A stretch of DNA of 64,000 nucleotides, taken from contig OX597818.1 in the NCBI GenBank assembly GCA_951406725.2, forward strand, positions 52,142,001 to 52,206,000, read 5' to 3'. The position numbers were made by a program, and so were the translations under genes. Positions 1-61,821 of this stretch are shown here, piece by piece (positions within the stretch are counted from its first letter, which is position 1; each line of letters starts with the position of its first letter). A model generated the notes under the pieces. That model was given only the letters and a program-made list of their open reading frames with translations. It was not told the DNA's origin and made no database searches. This DNA comes from Octopus vulgaris (lineage: Eukaryota).

Positions 1-626
1 GCCCGAAATTTGGTGGGAGGGCTCCAGTCGATTAGATCGACCTCAGTATGCAACTGGTACTTAATTTATCGACCCCGAAAGGAAGAAAGGCAAAGTCGAC
101 CTCGGCGGAATTTGAACTCCATAAAGACAGACGAAAAGACAGACGAAATACCTATTTCTTTATTACCCACAAGGGGCTAAACATAGAGGGGACAAACAAG
201 GACAGACGTAACTAGTACTTAATTTATCGACCCCGAAAGGAAGAAAGGCAAAGTCGACCTCGACGGAATTTGAACTCAGAACGTAAAGACTGACGAAATA
301 CCTATTTCTTTACTACCCACAAGGGGCTAAACACAGAGGGGACAAACAAGGACAGACATAGGTATTAAGTCGATTACATCGACCCCAGTGTGTAACTGGT
401 ACTTAATTTATCGACCCCGAAAGGATTAAAGGCAAAGACGACCTCGGCGGAATTTGAACTCAGAACGTAACGGCAGACGAAATACCTATTTCTTAATTAC
501 CCACAAGGGGCTAAACACAGAGGGGACAAACAAGGACAGACATAGGTATTAAGTCGATTACATCGACCCCAGTGCGCAACTGGTACTTTATTTATCGACC
601 CTGAAGTGATGAAAGGTAAAGTCGAG
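1..626 (-). mobile_element. SINE family A head-to-tail multimer (three tail-A units plus a terminal tail-B unit)
   Basis: Repeated B-box GAGTTCAAATTC and body CTTTGCCTTTCATCCTTTCGGGGTCGAT on the minus strand; junctions AAATAG|GTATTTCG at 151, 301 and 485. Confidence 0.9.
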
Positions 627-8844: not shown

Positions 8845-10375
<1,531 letters not shown>

Positions 10376-10376
10376 A

Positions 10377-11020
10377 AGGCGACGAGCTGGCAGAATTATT
10401 AGTACGCCGGGTAAAATGCTTAGCAGCATTTCGTTCGTTTTTACTTTCTGAGTTCAAATTCTGCCGAGGTCGACTTTGCCTTTCATTCTTTCGGGGTCGA
10501 TTAAATAAGTACCAGTTACGCTCTGGGGTCGATATAATCGACTTAATCCGTTCGTCTGTCCTTGTTTGTCCCCTCTGTGTTTGGCCCCTTGTGGGTAGTA
10601 AAGAAATAGGTATTTCGTCTGCCGTTACGTTCTGAGTTCAAATTCAACCGAGGTCGACTTTGCCTTTTATCCTTTCGGGATCGATAAATTAAGCACCAGT
10701 GAAACACTGGAGTCGATGTAATCTATTTCTTTACTACCCACAAGGGGCTAAACACAGAGGGGACAAACAAGGACAGACAAACGGATTAAGTCGATTACAT
10801 CGACCCCAGTGCATAACTGGTACTTAATTTATCGACCTCGAATGGATGAAAGGCAAAGTCGACCTCGGCGGAATTTGAACTCAGAACGTAACGCAGACGA
10901 ATTACGGCTACGCATTTCGCCCGGCGTGCTAACGTTTCTGCCAGCTCGCTGCCTGGAGTCGATGTAATCGATTAGCCCCCCCCCGAATTTCAGGCCTTGT
11001 GTCTTTAGTAGAAAGGATTA
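10377..11020 (+). mobile_element. SINE family A dimer with a nested antisense SINE A (10724-10952)
   Basis: Junction AAATAG|GTATTTCG at 10609; the nested copy is flanked by a 17-bp TSD CTGGAGTCGATGTAATC (10707-10723, 10953-10969). Confidence 0.9.
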
Positions 11021-11161: not shown

Positions 11162-11439
11162 GTCAGTGATACCGTCCATCTGAATCGGGAGATACTGCCA
11201 AATGTAATTAATAGTTTTGGTACAAGCCTTCTTGTAATCAAAGCTGCATACGAAAGCATGCATGCATGCATGTGTGTATGAACGTATGTACGAATGCTTG
11301 TATCTATGTATTTATATCTAAGCTTGTATCTATGTATCTATATCTAAGCTTGTATCTATGTATCTATATCTAAGCTACAGTTTCCACGTACACATACAAA
11401 AGTACGCAGATACACGCCTATATATACATAGGTGCACCA

Positions 11440-11857
11440 AGGTGGCGAGCTGGCAGAAACGTTAGCACGCCGGGCAAAATGCTTAGCGGTATTTCGTCTG
11501 CCGTTACGTTGTGAGTTCGAATTCCGCCGAGGTCGACTTTGCCTTTCATCCTTTCGGGGTCAATAAATTAAGTACCAGTTATGCACTGGGGGCGATGTAA
11601 TCGACTTAATACCTATGTCTGTCCTTGTTTGTCCCCTCTGTGTTTAGCCCCTTGTGGGTAATAAAGAAATAGAAATAGGTATTTCGTCTGCGTTACGTTG
11701 TGAGTTCGAATTCCGCAGAGGTCGACTTTGCCTTTCATCCTTTCGGGGTCGATAAATTAAGTACCAGTTACGCACTGGGGTCGATGTAATCGACTTAATA
11801 CCTATGTCTGTCCTTGTTTGTCCCCTCTGTGTTTAGCCCCTTGTGGGTAAAGAAATA
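11440..11857 (+). mobile_element. SINE family A dimer
   Basis: Full tRNA-like head, two bodies, junction AAATAGAAATAG|GTATTTCG at 11678. Confidence 0.9.
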
Positions 11858-20466: not shown

Positions 20467-20872
20467 AGGGCTAAACACAAAGGGTTAAACATAGAGGGGA
20501 CAAACAAGGACAGACAAACGGATTAAGTCGATTACATCGACCCCAGTGCGTAACTGGTACCCATTTAATCGACCCCGAAAGGATGAAAAGCAAAGTCGAC
20601 TTCAGCGGAATTTGAACTCAGAGCATATAGACTGGCGAAATACTCTTAAGCATTTCGTCCGGCGTGCTAACGTTTCTGCCAGCTCGCCGCCTTCATGCTC
20701 ACGTATATTTATCAATCTGTCTTTACGTTTTCAGTTCAAATACCGCCGAGGTCGACTTTGCCTTTCATCCTTTTGGGGTCGATAAATTAAGTGCCAGTTA
20801 CGCACTGGAGTCGATCTAATCGATTGGCTCCCTCCCTCAAAATTACGGACCTTGTGCCAAGAGTAGAAAAGT
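20467..20872. mobile_element. Two SINE A copies in inverted orientation (20467-20692 minus, about 20720-20872 plus)
   Basis: Both match the family A body. Confidence 0.85.
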
Positions 20873-21371
20873 ATATTGATATATATAAAGTCGTAAGGAC
20901 ACAGACAGACAGACGGACGGACACACACACTTAACAGACGACTAGGTATCTGAGTGCGTGGGAACAATCCGAACCTTTTGTTTTCTTAAACTACGTTGCC
21001 TAGTCTTGGTGGAGGTAAACACTTTAGGAAGCTAAGAAGAAGAAGAAGAGGTGGAATAGTAATGAGAAAAAAAGGGATGAAAAGAAGGAGGTGAGGAAGA
21101 TAAAAAGAAAGATGGAGACGGGAAAGAAGACGAAGGAGGGGGAAAACGATGAAATAGACGGATAGAGATGCATTGAGATATAATGTAGGGGGTAGGGGTG
21201 TAGCAGAGTTGGGGGTAAGTCTTTGTTATTGTTGGTGCTTCGTCTGAGTTCAGACCGCCCTGAATGAGCAGACATACAGCCAAAGGCTTTCCAATCGTGA
21301 CCATTCCATCATATTTGCAAATCAGAGCAAAAAAGGTAAAAAAAAAAATTTTGAAAAAAAAAAAGACAACT

Positions 21372-25420: not shown

Positions 25421-25648
25421 CTATTTCCTTACTACCCACAAGGGGCTAAACACAGAGAGGACAAACAAGGACAGGCAAATGGATTAAGTCGATTATATCG
25501 ACCCCAGTGCGTAACTGGTACCTAATTTATCGACCCCGAAAGGATGAAAGGCAAAGTCGACCTCGGCGGAATTTGAACTCAGAACGTAACGGCAGACGAA
25601 ATACCACTAAGCATTCCGCCCGGCGTGCTAACGATTCTTCCAGCTCAC
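25421..25648 (-). mobile_element. Full SINE A inserted into a SINE B copy (about 25238-25790)
   Basis: TSD CCGTAACTTAGC on both sides; the host SINE B continues after the insertion. Confidence 0.85.
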
Positions 25649-26096
25649 CGTAACTTAGCGATAGTGTGAGAGAGACCGATAGAATAAGTACCAGATATAA
25701 AAAGATTAATACTGGGATCGGTTCGTTTCACTAAAATTTTTCAAGGCGGAGCTCCAGTATGGCCGCAATCTAATGACAGAAGCAAGTAAGAGTCAAAACT
25801 TCACTGTTTTGCCCTTCCCTTTTTTTTTGGCTTTCGGGAACAATATGCTTCAGACTACATCATTTGTAAGATGTGGTTCCAAATGAGATTTAGCTGCTGC
25901 TTCTAGCGAGTTCAACGACCACACAGAGTCTCCTTCGTTTGTTCCTCTTCCCCCCATCATCATAGCTTTCGTTATAGGTGTTGATATGGTGTTTATTGCG
26001 ACGGTTTATTAAAGCTGAAGAGGGAGGTGGCTGGTTATTGTTCTCCGTGATTGTTGTGAGTTTTTACACACTCTCTTTTGTTGTCATCATCCTTGT

Positions 26097-33028: not shown

Positions 33029-33316
33029 GTAAGTACCTACGGCATCCTTTTACCCTACACCCACTTTTCTAAATAAATCGATAAATAATTGTGTGTGAAC
33101 GCGTACTTTCTTATCATCGACAGCCAACTTTTTATTTATAAAAGTAAAGGAAATATTACACTCGCGAGAAGAGCGTAATTGTTGCTCGGTGGACTTTCGG
33201 AAGAGCTATCGAGAACAGACACGCGTACCCTTAATGTAATTCTCGGGGAGATTCAGCATGACACATCGAGAACAGCAGGGCTGGATTAAGACCCATAGTT
33301 GCCTTATGCACTTTTC

Positions 33317-34480
33317 CTACGCAACCGCTGAGCCTGGATGTGCATTCATCCATCCATCCGTCGATGCTCTCGGTGTCGGGGATTGACCTGCTTTCTCTTC
33401 TGCGGGTCTTACGAATAGCAAAGGACCATGTTTCGGACTTCTCCCACTACTGGGACGAAAACCGCTTCGCTCAACGGCAACAGCAGCTACAGCATGTTGA
33501 GCTCGCCTTCCAGAAGGCGCTGACAACAGATTAAACTACCTGCCCAGTGGAAACACGTCTCTTTCATATGAATTTAAAAAGCAGGCGCTCTGACCTGGTC
33601 AGACGGGGAGTAGAACGAGGCACCGAAGTCAAGAGATAAATGTAAAGCAAGCAATGTAGGCATTCGCCAATTCAGCTCGAACACTGAGAAATAGCTTCCT
33701 CACAGCTTATTTTTGAGTGAGGCTGGCCACACTATATATATTTCTTTACTGCCCAGAAGGGGCTAAACATAGAGGGGACAAACAAGGACAGGCGAAGGGA
33801 TTAAGTCGATTATATCGACCCCAGTGCGTAACTGGTACTTTATTTATCGACCCCGAAAGGATGAAAGGCAAAGTTGACCTCGGCGGAATTTGAACTCAGA
33901 ACGTAACGACAGACGAAATACTGCTAAGCATTTCGCCCGGCGCGCTAACGTCTCTGCCAGCTCGTCGCCTTAACCACACTATATAATCTGATCTTGGTTT
34001 GTGTCCACAACAAGGCCTGATCAGAATCAAATATCGAGTATTTTAATCAGTCCACCTGTCCAGCGACGTGACGTTGTTCGATAGTGTACACTTGGACCGC
34101 TGCAAACTTACTAACTTGTTCGTATTTATTTCTGTCCCTGGCATCGCTTCGTATTCCTTTAGAATGATGCCGACTACTTTCATTTCTTTGGTGACCAACA
34201 TCAAAACGGTGACGTGGTCAGCATACTCTGACTTAACTCTCCAGCATCCCAGGTCAGAAGGGATATCCTTCAACCGTTCTAGCTTCCGCAACAATAGCTC
34301 GGGAGCCAGTTCGTAAAGGAGACACGAAAGAGGACAATTTTGACGGGCCAAGCGAGCGATGTGAAACTGTTGTGAGAGGTGGCCGTGCGACTGTTGTGCA
34401 TTGCCTCAATCCAGCCTCCGAAGACGGGTCCATAATCGAACATCTTTAGGACTACTGACGCAATAAAAACTATGCAACAA
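33317..34480 (-). pseudogene. Decayed L1/Tx1-like LINE fragment (RT core plus downstream part), interrupted by a SINE A at 33740-33971
   Basis: RQNCPLS and YADH are decayed forms of the RT motifs RQGCPLS and YADD; the SINE has TSD CCACACTATATA (33727, 33974). Confidence 0.75.
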
Positions 34481-42036: not shown

Positions 42037-42820
42037 AAGGTGGCGAGTTGGCAGAAACGTTAGCACGCCGGGCAAAATGCGTAGCCGTATTTCGTCTGCC
42101 GCTACGTTCTGAGTTCAAATTCCGCCGAGGTCGACTTTGCCTTTCATCATTTCGGGGTCGATAAATTAAGTACCAGTTACGCACTGGAGTCGATGTAATC
42201 GACTTGATCCGTTTGTCTGTCCTTGTTTGTCCTCTCTGTGTTTAGCCCCTTGTGGGTAGTAAAGAAATAGAAATAGGTATTTCGTCTGCCGCTACGTTCT
42301 GAGTTCAAATTTCGCCGAGGTCGACTTTGCCTTTCATCCTTTCGGGGTCGATTAAATAAGTACCAGTTACGCACTGGGGTCGATATAATCGACTTAATCC
42401 GTTTGTCTGTCCTTGTTTGTCCTCTCTGTGTTTAGCCCCTTGTGGGTAGTAAAGAAATAGAAATAGGTATTTCGTCTGCCGCTACGTTCTGAGTTCAAAT
42501 TCCGCCGAGGTCGACTTTGCCTTTCATCCTTTCGGGGTCGATTAAATAAGTACCAGTTACGCACTGGGGTCGATATAATCGACTTAATCCGTTTGTCTGT
42601 CTTTGTTTGTCCTCTCTGTGTTTAGCCCCTTGTGGGTAGTAAAGAAATAGAAATAGGTATTTCGTCTGCCGCTACGTTCTGAGTTCAAATTCCGCCGAGG
42701 TCGACTTTGCCTTTCATCCTTTCGGGGTCGATAAATTAAGTACCAGTTACGCACTGGGGTCGATGTAACCGACTTAACCCCTTCCCCGATATCGCTGGCC
42801 GAGTGATAAAATTTGAAATC
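42037..42820 (+). mobile_element. SINE family A tetramer: head, three 190-bp units and a terminal tail-B unit
   Basis: Units start at 42087, 42277, 42467 and 42657, each with GTATTTCGTCTGCC; units are nearly identical. Confidence 0.93.
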
Positions 42821-43624
42821 AATACAGTAAGAGAGAGAGGGGGGAGGGGGAGAGAGTGAGTGTTCGTGTGTGTATGTCTTTCGTATAAGGTAGAGAAAGA
42901 GAGAGTGAGAGGGAGGGAGGATGAGTAATGTCGAAGAGGGTTAATTTCTTAGCAAACCAAATACGTGAACAAGTCTCCATTTTTTGAATAGAAAAATATG
43001 ACTTTACATCTATTTATTTTGAAAGCCTTAGTAAATACACGAAAATAAAACTTCAGATCTCTCCACATCGAATTCAATTGCAATAATCCATCGATCGGTT
43101 GCGGGGGAAAAAAAAAACCAGTGGGAAAAATGATCATATTTGATACTTAATTTTAATTATTTCAGAATTCTGAGATGGTATCGGCATAATGAATAGTAGT
43201 TATGAAAGTAAAAGCATATTTTACAGCACGGAACATTAAACACTTAAAATAATGTTTGACAAACATGCTGTGAGAGAAAAGTAGTTTTTAATGACTGGTA
43301 TTTATTTATTAATTTATTTTCGATAATTACCGGAGATAATTTCGGACATATTTTTGATTTATTGAACTTCTTTGGTGGAAACGAGGCTCACTGAAATTTG
43401 TCAAATAGTTTTAATGTTCGTCCATTACATATGGTTTATATCCACGTATCACTCTATTGAATATTTGATCTATTGAAATTTATCAGGTCCTCTCTCCCTT
43501 GTTCGACATTGAGATTAATTCTCATAAAAGTTACTGAATCTGTTTCTCATTACGTTTATAATTTAATTTCAATAGATTAAAAATTATTTTAATTGAAAAT
43601 TATTTTAATAGATCAAAAATTATT

Positions 43625-47507: not shown

Positions 47508-48205
47508 TCCGCGAAGTCGTGAATCCGCGATAGTTGAACCGCGAAGTAGCGAGGGATCGCTGTATTACAGATTCTGCAATGGAGGACATAGGCTCTCGGT
47601 CGGTTCAAACTGCAATGTTTTTCAGTCCTTGCTTCCCAACCACATGGTTCCGGGTTAAATCCTACTTCATTAGGTGCCTTGAGCCTGAAACCAAATGGTT
47701 CCAAACCGCGATTCTTAACCACATATGATTTCTATTACTTAATTAATTAATTAAATAGGGAGCACTCCGTCGGTTACGACGACGAGGGTCCCAGCTGATA
47801 CGATCAACGAAACAGTTTGCTCGTGAAATTAAAGTCCAAGTGGCTGAGCACTCTACAGACATGCATACCCTTAACGTAGTTCTCAGGGAGATTCAGCATG
47901 ACACAGGGTGTGGCATGGCCGGCCCTTTGAACTACAGGTACAACTCATTTTTACCAGCTGAGTAGACTGGAGCAACGTGAAATAAAGTGTCTTGCTCAAG
48001 GACACAAAGCGTCGCCAGGAATTGAACGCATGACCTTACAGTCGTGAGCCGAATGCCCTAACCACTAGGCCACGCGCCTTCACAAATAATTAGTTGATTA
48101 ATTTGCCTTTCCAAATGTTAATTCGATTCCATTTTGTTACTGATTGCTAAATGTTTTTTGGGAGTGGTCAGCTGCTAATCGTCCTGATTTCCTTTCGTCC
48201 CGCAG

Positions 48206-48410
48206 TAACGACAACACCAGTTACACAGCCTATCAGACGATGAGAACACCATCGGCCACCTACGATTACTCCACATACACCTATCCAGATAATTACAGTC
48301 GGGCGGCTGCTGTCACCGTGGTTCCAAACACGACCCCCACCCCCGACGCCGTCTCTCCGCACGTCTATCATCCGCACCATCACCAGCATCACCAACAACA
48401 TCACCAACAA

Positions 48411-48441
<31 letters not shown>

Positions 48442-48761
48442 CTACAAGTTACGATGGCAACGCGCATATGAACAGCAGCAGCAGCGGCACTCACAATAAC
48501 GCCAACAGCAGCAACAGCAACAGCAGAAGCAGCAGCAGCAACAGTAACATCAGCAACCACAGCGGCAGCAACAACAACAACACGAGCAACACCAACGCCA
48601 ACACCACCAACAGCAGCTATTACGATGATAGCAGCCGAGTCGATTACTGCGGCACAACAAAGCGGAAGTACGATTCACACCAGGACACATTTTCCCGCCA
48701 CTACAAACGCTACAACCGTGAACAATATCCTTATCAAGTAACTTCCGGTGGTTACATGTAA
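48206..48761 (+). CDS. RFX4: RFX4-like last coding exon (Y/S/T-rich, poly-H/Q, N/S-rich; ends ...YPYQVTSGGYM*)
   Basis: cctttcgtcccgcag acceptor, phase-2 entry matches the previous donor, TAA at 48759-48761; part of ORF 48144. Confidence 0.82.
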
Positions 48762-51984: not shown

Positions 51985-52640
51985 ATGATGGCTGCCCCCT
52001 CGTTATCGAGTATGGCCATTGCACAAAGCTTAACTGTTATTGGTGCTGTGATCGAATGTGACTTATTAGCCTAGCTAAAGATCTACAATGTCTTGTACAG
52101 AATTGGCAGCTAATTCCTTTACCGGTAATAGCCGGCTGTAGTTGTAACTGGGCTTTATGTAACTTTGCACGTCGTTTAAGTCCTCCTGCCGAATTACACT
52201 CCCTTTTACATACCTGACAGATATGATTAGTATGGTGTGTTACACCACCACCAGTGGCCAAGTTGTCACTCATCTGTCTCGCTTTATGACTACGAAGATG
52301 ACTCTTGAGTCCAGCTTTACTGAAGCAGGGTCTTGCACAGACACTGCATGTCAGCATCATAGGAAGACCCTTACCATCTGGAAATGCAACAGTGATGCCC
52401 TTCCTGACATCCCTCCTTACTTTCTCATGCGCAACTCGAGATTTCTCAAAAGAAGCTGTCCCCTCGTGCACAATCCTTCTCCACCTGCTACGGTCAATAG
52501 CTATGCCCTCCCATGTGTCAGGGGAGATGCAAGCATCTTTTAAGGAAGCCTTCGGCAAGTTCTTATACCTCTTTTTTGGTTTATGCGGAGGTCGTTCTCC
52601 TTTGCTAACTCTCCATAAAAGAGTTATGGGGAGTTAGTTA
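51985..52640 (-). mobile_element. RTE-clade LINE 3' fragment with three C2H2-type zinc fingers
   Basis: G.RP...PKKRYK..LK and W...A.DRSRWR motifs typical of RTE ORF C-termini; CxxC...H...H repeats; stop, short UTR and (TGTA)n; flanked by (TACA)n. Confidence 0.8.
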
Positions 52641-52734: not shown

Positions 52735-53260
52735 TCTATAATGTGAACATTATCAATACAACTTAAATAACGAATGTATGTTGTCTAAATGACCGAAGTT
52801 GTGGATTTTCTTTCTTGAAAATTCATTTTAAAGACGTATAGTGTTGAAAAATGCAACAATCTTCAGAGCTAAGCGAAACGAAATCGCCCCAGAAGTGATC
52901 ACGAAAGCCATAGATAGGTATTTCGCCGTAGTTGCAGCTAATCAATGTCGCTTACTCGTGACACTTCTGAAACAAAATCGAATCCGCTAGTCTGAAGAAT
53001 ATTGTAATCAATATATTATATTATTGATTCCATTTCGTCTCGGAGACAACACTGATATGGGACGTTGATAAGCTGCGCCTATGGCGAAATACGTATCTGT
53101 CACTCACATGATCATTTCTCGGGCGATTTTATTTCGCCTAGCTCTGATGTATACTGTGTTTTTTAGCACTATACATTTTTAAGGGATTTTTCCCTGATGA
53201 AAACCGCAGTTTACGGCATTTAAACAACACACATACTTTAAGTAGGTAGCATAGATCATA
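52735..53260. repeat. Long diverged foldback element
   Basis: CAGAGCTAAGCGAAACGAAATCGCCCAGAAGTGATCA pairs with TGATCATTTCTCGGGCGATTTTATTTCGCCTAGCTCTG; symmetry extends outward. Confidence 0.7.
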
Positions 53261-59490: not shown

Positions 59491-60276
59491 GACGAAGACG
59501 ACGGGCATCCACACAGCTTCTGTCGACCGAATTAATTCCCAAATCATTATACCTATTTCTTTACTACCCACAAGGAGCTAAACACAGAAAGGACAAACAA
59601 GGACAGACAAACGGATTAAGTCGATTACATCGACCCCAGTGCGTAACTGGTATTTAATTCATCTACCCCGAAAGGATGAAAGGCAAAGTCGACAATTTGT
59701 AAGAAAACTGTGTAGAACCAGAAAGATCGAAAGCAAACCACCGTCTGATGACGGCGAGTGGGCCGAAACTTCGAAGCCACCATTAATCTTGTTTTAAAAA
59801 TTGATAAATATATGTGTGCATATCTACATGTTTTGTAATCAGCACATAAAAATGTCTTTCCTAAAGTGGTATAATGATATATTTATACTAATTATGTACA
59901 TTCAGACCATAAAATAATTAATAATTATATTAAATATATATATTCAAAGCCCTCATATTTGTGTCACAGGAAATAAAGTAGTACATTATATTATTCTGTT
60001 ACACATTGACTGAAAAATTCTAGAGGGAACATTTGTAACAGTAAAATAAAAATGCTATTAGTGTTTAAAAACTAGTTTTATAGAAACTTCTTTCAAAATT
60101 CCTATTTTGTTTTTCACACATTAACTCGTGTAGGTTGAACCTATAGGCGCAGGAGTGGCTGTGTGGTTCATTACCGCTGCGTGGCACCTTGGCCAAGTGT
60201 CTTCTACGATAGCCTCAGGCCGACCAAAGCCATGTGAGTGGATTTGGTAGACAGAAACTAAAAGAAGCCCGTCGTA

Positions 60277-60905: not shown

Positions 60906-60942
60906 GGTTAGAGTGTCAATGATAATGGTATTTTATGTTCAG

Positions 60943-61360
60943 GAGGCGGCGAGTTGGCAGAAACGTTAACACGCCGGACGAAATGCTTTGCGGTATTTCG
61001 TCTGCCGTTACGTTCTGAGTTCAAATTCCGCCGAGGTCGACTTTGCCTTTCATCCTTTCGGGGTCGATAAATTAAGTACCAGTTACGCACTGGGATCGAT
61101 ATAATCGACTTAATCCGTTTGTCTGTCCTTGTTTGTCCTCTCTATATTTAGCCCCTTGTGGGTAGTAAAGAAATAGGCATTTCGTCTGCCGTTACGTTCT
61201 GAGTTCAAATTCCGCCGAGGTCGACTTTGCCTTTCATCCTTTCGGGGTCGATAAATTAAGTACCAGTTACGCACTGGCGTCGATATAATCGACTTAATCC
61301 GTTTGCCTGTCCTTGTTTGTCCTCTCTGTGTTTAGCCCCTTGTGGGTAGCAAAGAAATAG
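60943..61360 (+). mobile_element. SINE family A dimer with 16-bp TSD
   Basis: GGTATTTTATGTTCAG at 60927-60942 and 61360-61375; internal junction at 61176. Confidence 0.9.
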
Positions 61361-61821
61361 GTATTTTATGTTCAGAGTTCAAATTTGCTTTTCATAGTGG
61401 TGGGCTCGGTAAATATAAAAAGCAGTCAAGAACGAGATTCGATTTAATTGACAATACTCACCCTAAAATTTTAAGTTTTATGTCAGTGTTAGAAATCAAT
61501 AACATTTCCATCGACGAGTTTTAGGTTATTATCAATTAATTATCTCAGTTATAACTAACATAGGTAGAAGGTCACAAATTATGGAACAATCGATTATAAC
61601 GATCTCTAATGCGTCACTGGTGCATTATTATATCGAACTGGAAGGCTGAAAGACAGAGCTGACCAAGACTGGATTTGAACGTTGAACGTAAAGCAACGTA
61701 TTAAACAACGTATAGCATGTATTTTCAAGCGCATTCAATAACTGTCTTTCAGATAAATTATCGTGTTTATCAATATTTGGAGCACTATTGCATATGGTGA
61801 ACACCTATTAGATATGTACAC

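Follow-up and report, generated by a model that had tools for sequence, protein, structure and literature searches.

A fixed junction in head-less SINE arrays of Octopus vulgaris: probable self-targeting insertion at a site in the SINE head

Why should SINE multimers at separate places all be joined at one and the same base? The question is raised by a 64-kb stretch of Octopus vulgaris DNA (the window: 64,000 nucleotides of contig OX597818.1), which holds nine such junctions in five arrays, labelled A1 (1-625, minus strand), A2 (10376), A3 (11439), A4 (42037) and A5 (60943). The first-pass annotation described A4 as a head followed by three units of 190 bp and by a final one whose tail differs, and this layout holds over 42037-42823, where the tandem repeat has a period of 190 (3.6 copies, 97%). 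The sharing of one junction by the five arrays holds as well, the junction 14-mer being present at all nine places named (eight exact, one with one mismatch). It is also non-random, as had been claimed: with up to two mismatches allowed there are 13 matches against 1.11 expected, and none of 100 shuffles reaches that number. The unit length needs a correction: it is 184 bp in most arrays, a length of 190 occurs only where the terminal GAAATA is doubled, and one deleted unit has 150. The parts of A4 are as follows.

42037..42085, plus strand: SINE head, with an A-box-like motif at about 42049-42060; the head variant is that of the monomer at 10724-10952
42069..42098, plus strand: hairpin of 12 bp with the insertion hot spot in its loop, the site lying between 42085 and 42086; without covariation
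42086..42275, plus strand: unit 1, with a B-box-like motif at 42111-42123, body, and tail A ending in two copies of GAAATA
42276..42465, plus strand: unit 2, head-less, tail A
42466..42655, plus strand: unit 3, head-less, tail A, differing from unit 2 at 2 positions
42656..42823, plus strand: unit 4, a tail-A-type body that passes into a diverged tail B at about 42778

The first unit has the body alleles of unit 4 and the tail of units 2-3, and it carries C, not G, at the insertion site. In unit 4 the body is 2/113 off the tail-A majority and the tail B is 10/43 off the other B copies; this tail may instead belong to a young B subfamily. The joint is palindromic at all junctions, GAAATA-GG-TATTTC (42270-42283 in A4), and at all of them the top strand, from two bases inside the target, has the complement of the last six RNA bases.

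The repeated element belongs to a family with 37 body matches and 15 head matches in the window, three tail types (A, B and C) and a monomer of about 235 bp. SINEs are defined in SINEBase as interspersed, non-coding elements of less than 700 bp with at least 100 copies, at least 60% identity to tRNA, 5S or 7SL RNA over 60 nt, LINE-driven retroposition, recognized by target site duplications (TSDs) and a fixed 3' end, and Pol III transcription (PMC3531059). Size and interspersion of the family agree with this definition, as do TSDs of 12-17 bp around four copies with a fixed 3' end; as to copy number, 251,298 contigs of sequencing run X1 align to the monomer, contigs not being the same as copies. 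The tRNA derivation of the head is putative: it is drawn from A- and B-box-like motifs recognized by eye, and neither ARAGORN nor Rfam gives a tRNA match. The reported absence of a TTTT terminator was confirmed in the head and in all 10 units checked, the first run of at least four T in the A4 region being at 42980. The tRNA-SINEs OR1 and OR2 of octopus are possibly the same family as this one.

The remaining arrays, and the SINE copies of the window that bear on the junction, are the following.

1..625, minus strand: array A1, four units without a head, the last with tail C
10376..11020, plus strand: array A2, head and start diverged, then a single tail-A unit in circular permutation and a diverged tail-C host
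10724..10952, minus strand: tail-A monomer, antisense in the host of A2, with a 17-bp TSD at 10707-10723 and 10953-10969
11439..11857, plus strand: array A3, a head and two tail-A units with two private changes in common
25422..25649, minus strand: tail-A monomer with a 12-bp TSD whose first base is G
33739..33971, minus strand: tail-A monomer with a 12-bp TSD whose first base is T, which fixes the end of the element at AAATA
59554..59693, minus strand: tail-A copy truncated at its 5' end; the non-SINE DNA behind it begins with GGTATA
60943..61359, plus strand: array A5, a head and two tail-A units, with a 16-bp TSD at 60927-60942 and 61360-61375
61360..61470, plus strand: decayed SINE, the target of A5 at its GGTATTT site (score 83 against shuffles)

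Where does the element end? TSDs of 17, 12, 12 and 16 bp flank four tail-A insertions among the 13 loci searched, and all four copies end in AAAGAAATA, with T as the next base in one of them. For A3, A4, the host of A2 and the truncated tail-A copies the same search yielded no TSD, the best candidates having 6-8 bp. Since a T follows one TSD-flanked copy, the G of the proposed AAATAG end is no fixed part of the tail. In the heads the base preceding GTATTT is G in six, A in six and C in two of 14 copies, where A would fit CpG decay. The joint is AAATA followed by GGTATT, its G being target-derived or shared, and in genomic contigs of run X1 it has the G form in 58 and another base in 18, with A best supported and T also present. 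The restart had been placed at the first base 3' of a hairpin loop; the hairpin does span the site, but the restart lies one base earlier, inside the loop. The further reading of the unit as one that starts with GT and ends with AG has to be given up: because the element ends in AAATA and the G lies outside it, GT...AG is an artefact of where the cut was placed.

The hairpin itself is paired in 90.3% of 165 cells over 14 copies (slid controls 32-54%), and in the predicted fold of the A5 RNA its head arms pair with a probability of 1.0. Compensatory changes were found in none of its 12 pairs, and 465 of 500 shuffles pair equally well.

Into what kind of site do tail-A copies insert? The window contains 15 complete tail-A ends: nine are array junctions, one lies at the GGTATTT of the TSD-flanked decayed SINE beside A5 and five lie elsewhere. 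The next base is G in 13 of them, and in 11 the sequence continues with GG(T/C)AT, the array junctions not all being independent; 10 of the 15 are at the SINE site, again not all independently. The flanks of the five ends elsewhere begin with GGTATA, GCTAAG, GATTAC, TATATA and AATGTG. Tail A occurs in the window only together with SINE bodies. The host of A5 stands out by its similarity score (83 against 38.0 +/- 4.8 in shuffles, 0/500 as high), and its upstream half has no significant SINE similarity (71/500 shuffles).

Contigs of runs X2 and X6 were also aligned to the tail with a GGTATA flank, and the best four classes per run were counted, with the limits that contigs are not copies and that the aligner can pass through mismatches. 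In X2, 254 contigs pass GGTAT, mostly on into a SINE unit (agreement 0.5), 60 and 55 pass GGTATA or GGTA into long unrelated flanks, and 76 diverge directly after AAATA. The same classes, in the same order, hold 458, 60, 79 and 99 contigs in X6, which carries another species label. As GGTA makes up only 0.27% of the window positions, unique flanks starting with GGTA are expected to be rare beside flanks without G; among the best four classes they exceed them in number in both X2 and X6. Tail-A copies mostly land before G, above all before GGTA(T), and the GGTATTT site of the head is such a target, once with a TSD and also in contigs. Runs X1 and X2 may be the window's own source, and the contig counts leave out runs with a small share (insect, invertebrate and wastewater metagenomes). 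A raw-read run gave 10 aligned reads out of 12.9 million, one of them across the joint, too few to count, and scans of metagenomes (two), prokaryote genomes and viral contigs gave no match.

All five arrays hold two to four units, and four of the five run into a SINE whose tail is not A: A1, A2 and A4 end in tails C, C and B, respectively, and A5 adjoins a decayed non-A host. A circle joins the ends of its own molecule, and the sequence after the joint should therefore match the subfamily of the tail. Two junctions of A1 lead straight into old-type unit starts, sets of 41, 19, 11, 8 and 6 contigs in X1 rejoin the reference 8-23 bases late, and a late-rejoining joint in X10 has an old-type start in between. 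Older tail-A subfamilies share such starts (20476-20693), so the mismatch after the joint is support rather than proof.

Beyond position 45, units differ by 5.1% within arrays and by 7.5% between them (8 and 112 pairs; permutation p=0.004). The only near-identical pair is A4 units 2-3, the other seven within-array pairs differing by 2.9-9.5%. The first-pass annotation had asked whether units of one array share private mutations: the A3 units have two in common, but A4 unit 1 carries alleles of other loci, differing from units 2-3 at sites 77, 80 and 109 with alleles that recur elsewhere and match unit 4. Since units of this array differ at subfamily sites, no single template made the whole array unchanged. 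The units of an array are not independent draws either.

Two arrays received their junctions ready-made. In A2 the head (7/49) and the first 21 bases (8/21) are diverged, and the rest of unit 1 is only 3.6% from A4 unit 2; after the joint, about 36-37 bases equal the tail-A majority without a difference, followed by diverged host (10/76). A2 is thus an old SINE that received a single circularly permuted unit. In A4, donor-type sequence continues for about 110 bases after the last junction. Such a stretch is not given by plain insertion at the site, and in both arrays the donor already held the joint; it may have been a linear multimer RNA, a circle of RNA or DNA, or a dimer locus that acted through gene conversion. 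Linear multimer RNA is to be expected of units without a run of four T, and its plausibility, which had been raised at the outset, is strengthened by A5, a dimer flanked by a TSD, and by the two ready-made junctions. In A4, the C at the site and the absence of a TSD also speak against plain insertion there.

We consider the arrays best explained by insertion of the SINE at a hot spot in its own head, with the head of the new copy lost by homology and the resulting junctions later recopied, either out of read-through multimers or through recombination, and put the probability of this reading at about 0.65. The enzyme of a LINE would nick before GGTATTT and copy a tail-A RNA into the head site of another SINE copy. 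As the target sequence is part of the RNA, its cDNA could anneal to the top-strand end of a similar host or further along it, and the joint would then be seamless and head-less, giving head, unit and unit. In a diverged host, the head of the new copy would be kept, as in A5. Arrays without a Pol III stop would yield multimer RNAs able to retropose whole, and these may prime by homology and recopy the junction (A2, A4, A5). Read-through multimers would also carry the target sequence behind tail A and could pair with the nicked strand, reinforcing the choice of site, and exchange at the DNA level would add units. The steps have parallels in R1 and R2: R1 tandem arrays arise via insertion into the element's own TSD, R1 RNA ends that match the target anneal to give precise 5' joints (both PMC2718515), and a match of only 11 bp to the target can suffice for R2 cDNA to anneal (PMC11331408). 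A circular RNA is unnecessary to explain the arrays.

Was the head lost during insertion or only later? If later, a full-length copy would insert at the same site, the doubled head would be deleted between adjacent repeats of about 65 bp, and arrays would grow by unequal crossing-over or gene conversion. A5, which sits at the site in full length and has retained its head, favours this order of events; the two differences between A4 units 2-3 and the private changes of the A3 units fit local duplication, and a dimer locus as the source of conversion would account for the permuted unit of A2. It had been argued that random unequal crossing-over would not reuse one junction, but this argument would fail once a dimer exists, since the junction is preserved when tandem units exchange unequally. 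However, none of the nine junction units in the window shows a doubled head in a similar host, so all the doubled heads would have to be lost quickly, and seamless joining during insertion has experimental precedent (PMC11331408). Head loss during and after insertion look alike in these data; we regard the later loss as unlikely, and self-targeting insertion that includes it as a variant as highly probable. A single master locus that holds a multimer and gave rise to all arrays through Pol III read-through would agree with the units' lack of a T-run, with the TSD-flanked dimer A5 and with one tail variant found only in pairs (A1 and A3). The number of units (2-4), the three kinds of last tail and the old- and young-type starts past the joint do not, and junctions that lead into several SINE types contradict such a locus as the sole cause. 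The TSD-flanked head site is, moreover, a fresh use of the same base, and one master for everything appears very improbable.

The first-pass annotation favoured cleavage of the RNA in the hairpin loop, ligation to a circle of (in the present unit lengths) 184 or 190 nt and rolling-circle reverse transcription. The joint does lie in the loop of a hairpin, and the 3'-terminal GAAATA is complementary to the TATTTC of the unit start and pairs with it in the lowest-energy fold of the head-less A4 unit 2; A2 contains exactly one permuted unit, A4 units 2-3 are nearly identical, and the joint is present in two presumed RNA runs (13 and 7 contigs). Yet no ribozyme was found in Rfam down to E 5-10, the hammerhead core CTGANGA is absent from both strands of 10 units, and the unit folds like its shuffles (z 0.10). 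The pairing of the ends has a probability of 0.0 in three of three full-length RNAs and is missing from the linear fold of the A5 unit, and the head hairpin lacks covariation. Two Rfam matches on flanking low-complexity DNA were set aside as chance, with none on A5; circular folds are weaker than linear ones, which says little. Genomic arrays alone account for the joint in RNA contigs, and its occurrence in runs X10 and X11 was not accepted as evidence of transcription or of circles. A circle would also leave unexplained the preference for GGTA in unique DNA, the TSD-flanked site and the junctions into old-type units. With no ribozyme, an unremarkable fold, units that differ and arrays that end in hosts with other tails, a cleaved and ligated circle finds no support, and only the two arrays with ready-made junctions keep it in consideration, as quite improbable. 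We attach similarly low odds to a circle made without a ribozyme: a host nuclease would cut the head loop, the GAAATA and TATTTC ends would meet and be ligated, and the LINE enzyme would copy the product into matching SINE hosts; the permuted A2 unit and A4's twin units would then be rolling-circle footprints on a self-targeting system. For spliceosomal back-splicing or an intron circle there is a unit that can be written as GT...AG, with a pyrimidine-rich stretch near its end; as the element ends in AAATA, and A or T replaces the G in some genomic joints, this is scarcely credible.

Self-targeting insertion would require a LINE partner with a preference for GGTA(T), and no LINE at such a site was found within the 64-kb window. 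A decayed L1/Tx1-like reverse transcriptase fragment lies at 34043-34405 (minus strand; region about 33130-34420), interrupted by a tail-A monomer that a TSD of 12 bp flanks. It was rejected as the helper, having no Pfam family, no homologue and only weak matches to L1 ORF2. A LINE-like C-terminal frame with C2H2 zinc fingers (Pfam) is found at 52037-52633 (minus strand) and is presumably RTE-like. The 205-codon open frame at 48144-48761 (plus strand), with poly-Q and low-complexity stretches and no firm Pfam match, is possibly a coding exon.

How does the proposed system compare with known ones? It is close to the R1 arrays of Drosophila rDNA, where repeated insertion at one base with a site-recreating 14-bp TSD builds tandem stacks, transcripts that carry target sequence anneal for precise 5' joints, and downstream target bases are sometimes carried along (Stage and Eickbush 2009, PMC2718515). 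R1, however, is an autonomous LINE with 28S rDNA as its target (PMC2718515), whereas here a SINE targets its own head, the units lose the head and the specificity is partial. The crocodilian SINEU likewise prefers another repeat, which is attributed to its partner Tx1-Mar, and Tx1 inserts in Tx1D (Kojima 2015, PMC4494074); the target of SINEU is a Mariner DNA transposon, and head-less self-arrays are not described in the accessible text (PMC4494074). The arrays would thus work like R1 stacking and the SINEU/Tx1-Mar pair, the new element being that the target appears to be the SINE itself.

In squamate SINE-derived satellites, too, the tandem units are shorter than the SINE itself and the array closes with a longer one; a rare form has both SINE ends (PMC10702118). 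They reach up to 1000 units, mainly by unequal recombination, with no target preference described in the text available (PMC10702118); the octopus arrays have 2-4 units, 5/5 falling short of the four or more middle units taken as the working bar for such satellites, and are joined exactly at the 3' end. Metazoan non-LTR retrozymes resemble them in having short tandem non-coding units of similar size, but carry hammerheads and give demonstrated circles (PMC7229834). Here, neither Rfam nor the core-motif search found a hammerhead in the units, which have a SINE head and monomers flanked by TSDs. A fixed dimeric SINE does not fit either, as unit number and last tail vary. In the passages retrieved, an annotation of octopus repeats from 2026 includes SINEs and L1-Tx1 families without describing nesting, and those of its supplement hold nothing relevant (PMC13282606); a search of four of the five supplementary files of PMC4758252 gave no match. 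Subscription papers and Repbase aside, the literature search found no description of SINE self-targeting arrays.

A SINE with its own head as preferred site would supply its own targets, each insertion keeping one promoter and rebuilding the site. The arrays would then form a natural, very-high-copy record of how the 5' joint is made when the cDNA matches its target, a step studied so far in R1, R2 and engineered R2 systems. They would also mark a route from a dispersed SINE to a tandem repeat without chance duplication, and self-targeting would explain the swapping of tails between SINE subfamilies. Furthermore, they carry a warning against taking a fixed multimer joint in a genome as evidence of a circular RNA.

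The window contains further repeat structures. An inverted repeat at 52828-53182 has 157-bp arms (73% complementary), each with a near-match to the junction motif without a SINE body. At 20476-20880, two SINE copies stand head to head on opposite strands, one 3'-truncated and the other 5'-truncated. Old tail-B and tail-C copies (9895-10105 and 10376-11020) sit in (TTA)n-type microsatellites, which suggests for them a partner and target other than those of tail A.
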